In this document: piece by piece, positions 30,185 to 33,957 of the stretch
How the letters are laid out: each line of letters starts with the position of its first letter
Numbering within the stretch: position 1 is the stretch's first letter
Virus record (IMG/VR): IMGVR_UViG_2974563859_000001
Length of the DNA stretch: 64,000 bases
Origin: a virus
Taxonomy: Duplodnaviria; Heunggongvirae; Uroviricota; Caudoviricetes
Reading direction: 5' to 3' (one strand)
Program-made: the position numbers and the translations under genes
The notes under the pieces: model-generated
What the model was told of the DNA's origin: nothing
Database searches by the model: none
What the model saw: only the letters and a program-made list of their open reading frames with translations

Positions 30185-30219
30185 ATGAATTTCCTCCTAA
30201 AAAATATGTATTCATTATA

Positions 30220-30232
30220 ATAATATATATTT
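30220..30232 (-). promoter_or_regulatory. Early promoter box
   Basis: Exact motif upstream of RNase H. Confidence 0.75.
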
Positions 30233-30267
30233 GAAACATGTATATGTTATTAATAATAATTAAAATA

Positions 30268-30279
30268 AACAATATAATA
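30268..30279 (+). promoter_or_regulatory. Late promoter AACA-ATATAA-TA
   Basis: Consensus match upstream of 30311. Confidence 0.7.
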
Positions 30280-30310
30280 TTTCATAATACTATAAGGATG
30301 GTGAGAAAAA

Positions 30311-31015
30311 ATGTTAGTACCAAAGATGAATAATCCAAGTCTTATAAATGAAGATGAGTCTTATGAAGTTGTAATTGATTCTATTGATGATCGTGCAGAC
30401 TTTTTTAATTTTGAAATTACTTCTAATGAGAAGGAAAGACTAAAATTTATCAAACGAATTGAAAAGATAATTAGACGTTCATTTGAATATAAAACTTATA
30501 TTGGCTTTTTAAAAAATGAACTAGATTTGACAAAATGTACTTTCCTTCCAATGGTAGATACAAAGGAAATTAAAAAAGTTGGTTTAGAATTCCATCACTA
30601 CCCTTTTACTCTTTTTGATATTGTAAGCATAGTACTAGATGAACATATTCTTGTTAATGGAGAAAAAAGAATTAATCCATTTGATATTGCTGAAGAAGTC
30701 ATGGAATTACATTATCAGAATTATATAGGGTTAGTTCCACTTACAAAAACTGTCCATGAGCTAGTACACTCTGGAAAGATTTTTGTAAACCTTAACTATG
30801 TATTTGGTAACTATACTAAGTTTATTAATAAGTATGAGTCAGCCAATACTGAAAATTTCCAAGTATTATTAGGTAATTTAGAACAACTTAGTCAGAAAGA
30901 AGATAGAGAAGGAAGTATTAATGGTGATATCCTAGACAAGAGTCTATTAAAACTTAATATTAAAGATATTGAAAATCCTAATAAGATTGAAGTAGAAGAT
31001 GAACTTCTTGCATAA
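30311..31015 (+). CDS. HNH-like (His-Me finger) protein, 234 aa, paralog of 42300..42965
   Basis: LEFHHYPFTL, GLVPLTKTVHELVH. Confidence 0.55.
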   Translation: MLVPKMNNPSLINEDESYEVVIDSIDDRADFFNFEITSNEKERLKFIKRIEKIIRRSFEYKTYIGFLKNELDLTKCTFLPMVDTKEIKKVGLEFHHYPFTLFDIVSIVLDEHILVNGEKRINPFDIAEEVMELHYQNYIGLVPLTKTVHELVHSGKIFVNLNYVFGNYTKFINKYESANTENFQVLLGNLEQLSQKEDREGSINGDILDKSLLKLNIKDIENPNKIEVEDELLA

Positions 31016-31074
31016 ATATTAAGTTTTAAAAAATTTATTTCTCTTTTTTATTTTAAAAATTACCCTGCATTTCA

Positions 31075-31086
31075 AACAATTTAATA
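31075..31086 (+). promoter_or_regulatory. Late promoter AACA-ATTTAA-TA, predicted TSS 31086
   Basis: Consensus match directly before a GC-enriched non-coding block. Confidence 0.7.
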
Positions 31087-31346
31087 CGTGTGAGAGTAGC
31101 ATCCTTTCACGATGTTCACACGGAAGGAGATAGTGAGAGGTCTCCTTCTTACTCAACTGTTCGCAATGTGATTTCTCCATTTAGTACTCTGTGCATACCT
31201 CTATAGGTAAACTCTTTATGGGATGATCTTTGTCATTGGTTTTTGTTTCACCTCCGCATTAGTCACTGAGAGGTTTACCGATCCTCTTGGTGACAATGTG
31301 ACTGTTCTAGTTGTTAATGTTGGTGCAATTCCAACAGCAGTCACCA
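31086..31346 (+). ncRNA. Structured ncRNA ending in a tRNA-like minihelix with CCA
   Basis: Several helices; acceptor GACTGTT/AGCAGTC, T-arm GTTGG-TGCAATT-CCAAC, ACCA at 31343-46. Confidence 0.7.
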
Positions 31347-31575
31347 AATCTAAAATATAAAATTAGCTTTTCATTGGCGGAAAACACTTTTTTATATTTA
31401 AGAAAATATAACCATCAAACGTTTCTATTCCCTATTAATAGTTAGATGATAACGATCTTTCTATTACATCCAATCCGATACTCCTTCTAATTTTTATTGG
31501 TCTAATCAATTCTGTTCGCCATTGATTTAACTAATAAGATTTAGAAGGGGTAAATTATTGAAAGGAATGATTTAA

Positions 31576-31935
31576 GTGAATATAGTACTTGAAGCTTTGC
31601 TTCTAAAAAAGTTTGAAAAAGAAATTGATGCATTACATACACATTTAAAAGCTGAAATAGAAAGAGCTATTAATATTTATAAAAATTTAGCTATTGAAGA
31701 ACTCTTAGATTATAATAAAAATTATGAACTACAAGAAGAATTCTCTTCTCCGTTTAAAAGCAAGTGGATTAAGAATATTGAATATCTTACACATTTAAAA
31801 AGATCTATGAATCTTGGTCAATTTAATATTCTTAAAGCAGATATAGAAGAGTTAGATAAACATCTTTCTCATCCAAAATTAAATAGAGACAAGACTATTA
31901 TTCGTTCTTTAATTGATGAAATATTAAAATTTTAA
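31576..31935 (+). CDS. Hypothetical protein, 119 aa
   Basis: GTG start with AAAGGAA RBS. Confidence 0.5.
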   Translation: MNIVLEALLLKKFEKEIDALHTHLKAEIERAINIYKNLAIEELLDYNKNYELQEEFSSPFKSKWIKNIEYLTHLKRSMNLGQFNILKADIEELDKHLSHPKLNRDKTIIRSLIDEILKF

Positions 31936-31969
31936 TTTCATTAATTTTTATAAAAATAATCCTACACTT

Positions 31970-31981
31970 AACATATAAATA
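31970..31981 (+). promoter_or_regulatory. Late promoter AACA-TATAAA-TA for the tRNA transcript
   Basis: Consensus match ~90 nt before the tRNA. Confidence 0.65.
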
Positions 31982-32071
31982 TAAGGACGACATATTTTAA
32001 AATTTGTCTATGAACTTGTTAAGTATGGCAGTATTTAATAAGTTTAAAAATTTTACTCTTCTAGATTTTAT

Positions 32072-32145
32072 TGGGATATAGCCAAGTGGTAAGGCAACAT
32101 GCTGTTAACATGTCTATTTCGTAGGTTCGAATCCTACTATCCCAG
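32072..32145 (+). tRNA. trnN: tRNA-Asn (GTT), CCA not encoded
   Basis: Acceptor TGGGATA/TATCCCA, D-loop AGTGGTA, ACATG-CTGTTAA-CATGT, GTAGG-TTCGAAT-CCTAC, discriminator G. Confidence 0.95.
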
Positions 32146-32188
32146 TAAAGTCTAGAAGGGTTTTTACTGCCTATTTAGGAGGTCTATA

Positions 32189-32326
32189 ATGTTTAACTTC
32201 TTAATAATCTTATTTGATATATTTATAATATTATGTATGTTACCGTTTCTATTTATATTTAATTCAATGGGAAAAATGATCCTGCTAAAAAATAGGGAGA
32301 AAAATATAGATGTTAAAAAAGATTAG
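32189..32326 (+). CDS. Small membrane protein, 45 aa (MFNFLIILFDIF...)
   Basis: AGGAGGT RBS; hydrophobic N-terminal half; not in ORF track. Confidence 0.6.
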   Translation: MFNFLIILFDIFIILCMLPFLFIFNSMGKMILLKNREKNIDVKKD

Positions 32327-32645
32327 ATATTTTATTAAATCAGATGTAGAGTTACATTGTCGTAATATTTGGGAAGATGGAGTTAAAAGGATTGATGGTT
32401 TTAATTTTATAAGTAAGAAACCATTTTCTAATAGTTATCAGTATCATGCACCTCTAACTCTTGAATGTACTTATAGAATGTTAAAACTGATTCAAAGATC
32501 TATAAAAGAAAATAAGAGATCATTAACTTTTAAAATTAATCATGGTATGTCATGTAGTGAATCTATTACTATATGGAAAGGTAGTTTTAAAAAAGCTGAA
32601 AAATTAATGTTTGATTTAATAGAAAATATTCAAAAACAATATTAA
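32310..32645 (+). CDS. Hypothetical protein, 111 aa
   Basis: AGGGAG RBS. Confidence 0.55.
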   Translation: MLKKIRYFIKSDVELHCRNIWEDGVKRIDGFNFISKKPFSNSYQYHAPLTLECTYRMLKLIQRSIKENKRSLTFKINHGMSCSESITIWKGSFKKAEKLMFDLIENIQKQY

Positions 32646-33537: not shown

Positions 33538-33957
33538 ATGACACCTGAACTTATGAATTTAATTTATTGTGTTATTCTAGCAGTAGTTGTATTAGCTGGA
33601 GGTTTTGGAGTTAGTGTCTTCCTAAAAAGACATAAAGAACTAGCTCCAGTCCTTCAAGAAGTAACTAATGCTCTCCCAACTGTATTAGGAGTACTAAAGG
33701 CTATTGTGACTAAGGGTGTTTCACAACATCCTGCGGCTCATGCTTTTGATGTTTTACAAAAAGTGGCTGAAGTTGCCGCTAAAGGTGTAGAGCAAGTGAG
33801 TCAAGGTACAGAGTTGCAATCTGAAGAAAAATTAAAGTTGGCTAAAGAAAACTTCCATGCTATTGCTGAAGGTGTTGGTCTTAAGCCATCTGAACTTGAT
33901 GAGAAGGCTGTTGAAACTCTCATTGAGAATGTAGTATTTCATTTCAACAAAAAATAA
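33538..33957 (+). CDS. Holin, LL-H-like family, 139 aa
   Basis: One N-terminal TM; AAKGVEQ...EEKLKLA...IENVV motif; late promoter. Confidence 0.6.
   Translation: MTPELMNLIYCVILAVVVLAGGFGVSVFLKRHKELAPVLQEVTNALPTVLGVLKAIVTKGVSQHPAAHAFDVLQKVAEVAAKGVEQVSQGTELQSEEKLKLAKENFHAIAEGVGLKPSELDEKAVETLIENVVFHFNKK

Follow-up and report, generated by a model that had tools for sequence, protein, structure and literature searches.

A candidate RNase P-processed late RNA beside a tRNA-like minihelix in a PBS1/AR9-type Bacillus phage

The locus and its late promoter

We analysed a 64,000-nt stretch of viral DNA (IMG/VR record IMGVR_UViG_2974563859_000001), which we will call the window. Between a gene for a 234-amino-acid protein (30311-31015, g242 in phage AR9) and a gene for a 119-amino-acid protein (31576-31935, g243), there are 560 bp that carry no annotation in the records of the Bacillus phages vB_BspM_Internexus and vB_BsuM-Goe21. 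On the plus strand, this interval contains a late promoter (31075-31086), a GC-rich structured non-coding RNA (ncRNA) of 214 nt (31086-31299), a 47-nt mini-tRNA that lacks an anticodon (31300-31346), an AU-rich trailer (31347-31478), and a long stalk hairpin with an RNA 3' end just beyond it (31479-31557). Public RNA data place another 3' end at U31299, the base that precedes G1 of the mini-tRNA. We estimate that there is roughly an even chance that RNase P cuts the late transcript at this point, 5' of the mini-tRNA, and so releases a stable 214-nt RNA.

By blastn, the region is 99.6% identical to Internexus and 99.1% identical to Goe21, both of which are in the genus Takahashivirus, within the PBS1/AR9 group. 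Judging from sequence similarity, the window is from the genome of a PBS1/AR9-type jumbo phage.

The start of the late transcript has been mapped in AR9. Table S3 of Lavysh et al. 2017 (PMC5312081) lists a late primary transcription start site (TSS) at AR9 position 207979 on the plus strand, with a step height of 73 and a TEX enrichment of 2.02. The 50 nt upstream of this TSS are identical to 31036-31085 of the window, which puts +1 at A31086. The sequence at 31075-31086 has the form AACA-N6-TA, the late promoter consensus for the phage's non-virion RNA polymerase (PMC5312081). Matches to AACA-N6-TW are no more common in the window than expected by chance (191 against 183 expected), so the motif is uninformative by itself and the published TSS is what counts. 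A first-pass annotation of this DNA, made from the sequence alone, had read the motif as a late promoter and had expected an RNA end at 31086. The expected end coincides with the AR9 start as published from differential RNA sequencing, and it is this start, rather than the motif, that upholds the promoter.

Table S3 labels TSS 207979 as "tRNA", and the paper (PMC5312081) does not discuss an ncRNA there. According to its Table S4, the order of genes in AR9 is g242, g243, tRNA-Asn, and g244. The tRNA-Asn lies about 985 nt downstream of 31086, beyond g243, and another TSS (at 31981 of the window) is located just upstream of it. Because of this gene order and this other TSS, the "tRNA" label is probably a misassignment, which hid the ncRNA unit.

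Ends of the transcript in public RNA data

We examined three of the four single-end runs of a 2017 study (X1, X2, and X4) and an independent food-fermentation metatranscriptome from 2024 (X3). The four runs of the 2017 study match the four AR9 libraries that were made by vertis with the Sharma protocol. We worked with assembled contigs rather than with raw reads; these contigs retain the non-templated poly(A) at RNA 3' ends and hide the 5' ends.

In X2 and X4, position 31299 is followed by non-templated runs of 21 and 24 A (A21 and A24), and a 209-nt contig that covers 31091-31299 ends in a non-templated A24. The contig for 31227-31299 has the highest depth within the 2.5 kb that we examined. 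The 5' product (31086-31299) is the abundant species in X2 and X4, and in X2 its contig depth is far above that of g243. In X3, contig depth drops about 80-fold, from 651 (30521-31252) to roughly 6-8 (31315-31479).

Another 3' end lies at 31557, where runs of A21-22 were found in X1, X2, and X4. It stands just past the stalk hairpin (31479-31552; fold z = -6.1). Contigs for 31270-31557 in X1 and X4 continue across the minihelix and its CCA, so that the AU-rich trailer is transcribed by read-through, and contigs also link 31270-31557 with 31528-31941. None of the ends listed falls at 31346-31349.

The first-pass annotation had expected RNA ends at 31299/31300 and at the CCA (31346), and had suggested that the tRNA-like element might be a processing tag whose use releases a 214-nt RNA and a 47-nt mini-tRNA. 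The first of these ends was found, at 31299. The second was not among the ends listed, and the RNA instead reads through to 31557. The idea of a processing tag is thus partly supported, at the 5' side of the element, but the release of a 47-nt RNA that ends in CCA is not supported by these ends.

We did not use as evidence the gaps in contig cover (such as the one upstream of 31270 in X1) or the contig start at 31270, as these could be effects of de Bruijn-graph assembly. Similarly set aside was an X2 contig (31274-31453) with a run of 20 T before 31274, which might reflect the 3' end of an antisense RNA within the loop of a hairpin or an assembly artefact.

An anticodon-less mini-tRNA

The mini-tRNA at 31300-31346 has a 7-bp acceptor stem (GACUGUU at 31300-31306 with AGCAGUC at 31336-31342), a 12-nt linker, a 5-bp T-stem (31319-31323 with 31331-31335) closed by the loop UGCAAUU, a discriminator base (A31343), and an encoded CCA (31344-31346). 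In tRNA numbering, the T-arm has G53:C61, U54, C56, A57, and A58; the sole deviation is at position 55, which is G instead of U. Other tRNA-like features are U-1, G1:C72, A73, and the CCA.

We scanned for a minihelix pattern comprising a 7-bp stem, a linker of 0-30 nt, a 5-bp stem with a 7-nt loop that abuts the 3' acceptor strand, and N-CCA. Across both strands of the window there was 1 match, as compared to 0.06-0.09 per dinucleotide-shuffled window. When we also required G53:C61, U54, C56, a purine at 57, and A58, there were 0 matches in 2500 shuffles. The minihelix is also the sole such element in the entire 252-kb genome of Internexus. Because it is unique in the window and in this sister genome and was never matched in the shuffles, we consider the mimic to be non-random; on these counts it is a tRNA-derived or tRNA-mimicking top half and not a chance structure.

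Although the acceptor stem, the T-arm, the discriminator, and the CCA are as in a tRNA, the D and anticodon arms of the cloverleaf are absent, as just 12 nt separate the acceptor strand from the T-stem. ARAGORN reported only the tRNA-Asn at 32071-32146 and no transfer-messenger RNA (tmRNA), and the Rfam model RF00005 gave no match in 31070-31570 even at E ≤ 10. In tmRNA, the two ends of a single RNA come together to form the tRNA-like domain, which has G3:U70. In contrast, position 3:70 of the phage element is C:G, and the 5' strand of its acceptor stem is local instead of lying at the 5' end of the RNA.

Structure and composition of the 214-nt RNA

The GC content is 0.40 at 31100-31324, as compared to 0.21-0.30 on either side. 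Relative to shuffled sequences, the predicted fold of 31075-31360 has a z-score of -2.5 on the sense strand and -1.2 on the antisense strand; for the 214-nt RNA (31086-31299), z = -2.7. High GC in this genome does not always indicate RNA, since a second GC-rich island (33538-33957, 0.37-0.42) is coding: it corresponds to a 139-amino-acid open reading frame (ORF) that is rich in alanine and valine and has a hydrophobic N-terminus.

Three structures stand out in the predicted folds. Helix 1 (31087-31122) was present in both the minimum free energy and the centroid structure of every fold. It has an outer stem of 7 bp (CGUGUGA/UCACACG, 31087-31093/31116-31122) and an inner stem of 5 bp (31099-31103/31111-31115). 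Helix 2 (31123-31148) pairs GAAGGAGAU with GUCUCCUUC (31123-31131/31140-31148), that is, an arm resembling a Shine-Dalgarno sequence with an arm resembling an anti-Shine-Dalgarno sequence; some folds have an alternative register. The terminal hairpin (31256-31299) has a 12-bp core (31262-31273/31283-31294) and a weak 5-bp extension, down to G31256·U31299, that ends flush at U31299. Together, the terminal hairpin and the minihelix have a fold z-score of -4.2. The UUUACC of the hairpin's loop is complementary over 6 bases to GGUAAA (31206-31211), so that a loop pairing may form, and GGUAAA can also pair locally with UACC at 31197-31200.

The terminal hairpin is followed by AAUGUGAC (as read from the sequence) and not by a U-tract. 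A scan for terminators across 30200-32400 reported none, with a loop limit of 3-8 nt that excludes this hairpin and its 9-nt loop. By the U-tract criterion, 31262-31299 is not predicted to be an intrinsic terminator.

Searches with Rfam 15 gave nothing at gathering scores and nothing credible at E ≤ 10, either in 4 kb or in a 501-nt stretch. The best hits were chance matches of miRNA hairpins to the stalk at 31479-31552, far under the thresholds. We also considered and rejected a 6S-like or pRNA-like fold, given that there was no Rfam match and no end-to-end hairpin.

Overall, the structural description in the first-pass annotation held up well. It had described about 260 nt that are richer in GC than the flanks and have no credible sense ORF, and the GC profile and the ORF searches (see below) agree. 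The helices that it listed are all in the sequence and were recovered by thermodynamic folding. The parts of the mini-tRNA, from the 7-bp acceptor stem to the CCA, are where it had placed them, and its statements that the element is neither a tRNA nor a tmRNA and that the RNA lies outside of known families are borne out by ARAGORN and Rfam.

Relatives of the locus and its possible origin

In a blastn search of 50,697 phage records, the only homologues of the region were in Internexus and Goe21, both with at least 99% identity, and scanning IMG/VR for the exact pattern gave 0 matches. No homologue of the RNA was found with blastn and nhmmer in 54 loci (including 38 metagenome loci that encode relatives of the upstream gene) or in searches of the whole genomes of BpSp, LPJP1, MarsHill, and phiR1-37. 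Pattern scans did not find a comparable minihelix beside the homologues of g242, and the BpSp genome has no minihelix and no tRNA. Divergence among the three genomes (the window, Internexus, and Goe21) is about 1% throughout, so the local divergence gives no sign of constraint on the RNA. Within the minihelix, the sole variable site is G31337A, which is also the sole difference shown within 31086-31346 between the window and the RNA data. The A is present in Internexus, in Goe21, and in the RNA data, and the change preserves the pair (U·G to U-A).

Positionally equivalent RNAs are present in more distant relatives. In BpSp, a late-promoter motif and an ORF-free RNA (locus L003, 3741-3900; RNA at 3753-3900, z = -10) come directly after the homologue of g242. 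The metagenome contig Ga0172378_10003703 (4743-5075; hereafter L017) has two such RNAs, at 4754-4935 and 4970-5075. Every one of these RNAs has a hairpin at its 5' end, ACCUCC in a single-stranded segment, and a canonical hairpin-plus-U terminator, and none has a mini-tRNA. From their sequences, they appear to be unannotated small RNAs. As they end in canonical terminators without a mini-tRNA, PBS1-type phages appear to form this end differently.

The neighbouring tRNA-Asn (32071-32146) suggests where the phage element may come from. This tRNA has no encoded CCA and is enclosed in a long helix formed by its flanks (32055-32173; ACUCUUCUAGAUUUUAU ... UAAAGUCUAGAAGGGU; z = -6.2). The arms of the stalk at 31479-31552 resemble the arms that bracket the tRNA-Asn (ACUCCUUCUAAUUUUUAUUGG as compared to ACUCUUCUAGAUUUUAUUGG), and the stalk encloses only about 36 nt, with no tRNA. 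Furthermore, the UGUUAA in the linker of the minihelix is identical to positions 33-38 of the Asn anticodon loop. A duplicated tRNA module may be the ancestor of the unit, and such an origin would be compatible with either reading, cleavage or hairpins, of the end at 31299.

How the 3' end at 31299 may arise

A 12-bp stack of acceptor and T stems, a T-loop, and a 3' NCCA suffice for recognition by RNase P. Minihelix model substrates for RNase P are like the phage element in the stack, the T-loop, and the NCCA, but they are laboratory constructs. According to a review (PMC4919913), RNase P needs the T-loop of a substrate but not the D-loop, and the substrate's 3' end pairs with L15. Of the determinants of bacterial RNase P substrates, the mimic has all those that sequence can reveal, including the 7+5 bp stack. 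The CCA is an anti-determinant for RNase Z (PMC4919913), so the encoded CCA would explain cutting at the 5' side only and the observed read-through.

In the mechanism that we propose, the non-virion RNA polymerase of the phage would initiate late transcription at A31086 and would produce a non-coding unit that extends to about 31557. The host's RNase P would then recognise the 12-bp coaxial helix, the T-loop, and the ACCA of the mimic, and would cleave between U31299 and G31300 (the predicted U-1/G+1 site). Cleavage would free the 214-nt structured RNA, which would be stable and would accumulate because the long hairpin seals its 3' end. The downstream fragment (31300-31557) would keep the mini-tRNA at its 5' end. 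We infer that the enzyme is RNase P, that the functional product is the 214-nt RNA, and that the mini-tRNA serves mainly to direct processing.

Several observations count against this mechanism. The leader AAUGU can pair into the extension of the terminal hairpin, which could hinder RNase P. A second, minor A24 follows 31303 in X2 only. There is no covariation to support the structure, as every homologue is at least 99% identical. Contig depth is a poor measure of abundance, a 5' end at 31300 is not visible in contigs, and the RNA is from an AR9-type phage and not from the strain of the window. Finally, 31299 is 5 nt past the 12-bp core stem (which ends at 31294), and 31557 is 5 nt past the stalk (which ends at 31552), so a single rule based on hairpins could account for both ends. 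Specifically, both ends might be set by a stop of the phage polymerase, or by trimming by a 3' exonuclease, a few bases past the stems at 31262-31294 and 31479-31552, in which case the mini-tRNA would be a decaying relic or would have another role. Ragged trimming would fit the additional end at 31303, and the tRNA-Asn-like stalk and the UGUUAA linker hint at a degraded duplicate of a tRNA module. However, both hairpins lack a U-tract after them. The usual stalling point of exonucleases is a few bases past a stem, while the terminal hairpin, with its weak extension, is flush at 31299. The hairpins would also leave unexplained why a mimic that was absent from all 2500 shuffles, and that has U-1, G1:C72, and ACCA, should start at the very next base. 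We view this explanation as possible but on the improbable side, and we prefer cleavage by RNase P because the mimic begins right after the mapped end and because the site was predicted before the data were consulted.

The other explanations concern what the transcript is for. It could serve the g243 mRNA (ORF at 31576-31935) as a long, structured 5' leader that controls the expression or the stability of the message, with the processed mini-tRNA as a 5' stabiliser. g243 is expressed late, AR9's Table S3 does not list a separate TSS for it, and the contigs join 31270-31557 with 31528-31941. We nevertheless think that this is distinctly unlikely: there is a clear 3' end at 31557, 19 nt ahead of the start of g243, in three libraries; the 5' part is far deeper than g243 in the X2 contigs; and the late RNAs at this position in BpSp and L017 have their own terminators; and BpSp has no homologue of g243. 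Alternatively, the CCA-ended mini-tRNA could be the main product, a decoy that is aminoacylated or that binds enzymes (for instance against defences that target tRNAs), with the upstream RNA as a mere precursor. The acceptor/T-arm mimic does carry an encoded CCA, and the UGUUAA in its linker equals U33-A38 of the phage's tRNA-Asn, which is very highly expressed. But no 3' end at or near 31346 is among those listed, and contigs run through this site; the upstream 214 nt, not the mini-tRNA, are the abundant species in X2 and X4; the CCA blocks RNase Z, and the strong hairpin at the end of the 211-nt trailer would block exonucleases; and neither G3:U70 nor another strong minihelix identity element is present. 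A decoy as the main product is therefore very unlikely. As for a small protein, there are two open sense ORFs, of 38 amino acids (31090-31206) and 45 amino acids (31223-31360). The product of the latter is hydrophobic and might be a type I toxin, and an antisense RNA might account for the T-run before 31274 in one contig. Neither ORF is preceded by a Shine-Dalgarno sequence or has a product that matches Pfam or PHROG, and a search of 5.8 billion protein clusters found no homologue of the 45-amino-acid product. Furthermore, the major 3' end at 31299 truncates the 45-amino-acid ORF, and G31337A changes alanine to threonine in this frame yet keeps the RNA pair. (A 4-nt deletion in Goe21, 31213-31216, falls between the two ORFs and is therefore uninformative on coding.) A coding function is extremely improbable.

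Possible function of the RNA

The most abundant part of the 5' product is its last 73 nt, which comprise a single-stranded stretch containing UUUCACCUCCGC and then the terminal hairpin. Just 5' of this hairpin is CACCUCC (31249-31255), which is the core of the anti-Shine-Dalgarno sequence of 16S rRNA. CACCUCC occurs 5 times in the window, as compared to 1.2 expected. The late RNAs at the equivalent position in BpSp and L017 also contain ACCUCC, which in BpSp lies in the single-stranded linker ahead of the terminator. Moreover, the PBS1 and BpSp RNAs have the colinear blocks TAGTGAGA, CACCTCC, and CGCATTA in common, which is suggestive, but at these lengths chance alone should give a few shared 7-mers.

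Our leading guess is that this is a late riboregulator that pairs with ribosome-binding sites via the exposed CACCUCC. We noticed the motif post hoc, so it is weak evidence and we give it low weight. A bolder proposal is that the locus is a bacterial counterpart of MALAT1-mascRNA: a riboregulator that is matured by RNase P and whose CACCUCC titrates or blocks ribosome-binding sites, together with a mini-tRNA that persists as a CCA-bearing ligand of tRNA-binding enzymes or of tRNA-directed defences. We regard this combination as doubtful.

Comparison with known systems

The tRNA-like fold abuts the 3' end (31299) of a longer transcript, which is the arrangement seen for mascRNA and for the t-elements of plant mitochondria. 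In MALAT1-mascRNA and NEAT1(MEN beta)-menRNA (RF01684), a tRNA-like fold likewise lies directly 3' of a stable ncRNA, and RNase P, by cutting on the 5' side of this fold, would generate the mature 3' end of the RNA upstream. In contrast to the phage element, mascRNA is from vertebrate nuclei, has a full cloverleaf, has no encoded CCA, and is released by RNase Z, and a triple helix guards the upstream end. The phage element lacks the D and anticodon arms, encodes its CCA, and has a hairpin to guard the upstream end, and none of the listed ends points to release of the small RNA.

The t-elements are non-decoding tRNA-like structures at the 5' or 3' ends of plant mitochondrial transcripts, and have been proposed to be cis-signals for RNase P and/or RNase Z (Forner et al. 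2007, PMC1920247). These elements lie beside mRNAs in organelles, while the phage element is in a late non-coding unit and in a bacterium with an RNA-based RNase P. The phage arrangement works like MALAT1-mascRNA and the t-elements, yet it is a member of neither, nor of any Rfam family.

Other phage ncRNAs with tRNA-like ends are the precursor of the C4 antisense RNA of P1 and P7 and the species 1 and 2 RNAs of T4, which need the tRNA-processing enzymes of the host. There, RNase P generates the functional RNA's 5' end, whereas in the unit studied here its cut would set the 3' end of the RNA upstream, and the sequences are unrelated.

Our literature searches turned up no report of a tRNA-like processing module in the maturation of a phage or bacterial ncRNA, nor of this RNA. 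Such signals are established in vertebrate nuclei and in plant mitochondria. The transcript-end data also point to an abundant late RNA in a model jumbo phage. Because the phage can be cultured on Bacillus subtilis and the 3' end lies at the predicted phosphodiester bond, the idea of a cut site is directly testable; depletion of RNase P in B. subtilis should be feasible.

Neighbouring genes

The upstream gene (30311-31015, g242) belongs to phrog_12252, whose function is unknown. Conservation of this gene extends across AR9-like jumbo phages that infect Bacillus, Listeria, Staphylococcus, and Yersinia and to many metagenome contigs. Among its invariant residues are HHYP and H..HEL.H motifs, which could bind metal.

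Downstream, the long helix around the tRNA-Asn resembles a processing stalk; a run of U follows it, and there is an RNA 3' end at 32173. Just upstream of this tRNA, 31982-32048 is the most variable stretch among the three genomes. Among the contigs from the 2017 study, one form lacks 65 nt here (31982-32048) and has GGAAT in their place. It occurs beside a form without the skip, which may reflect a strain difference upstream of the tRNA-Asn or a paralogous locus.
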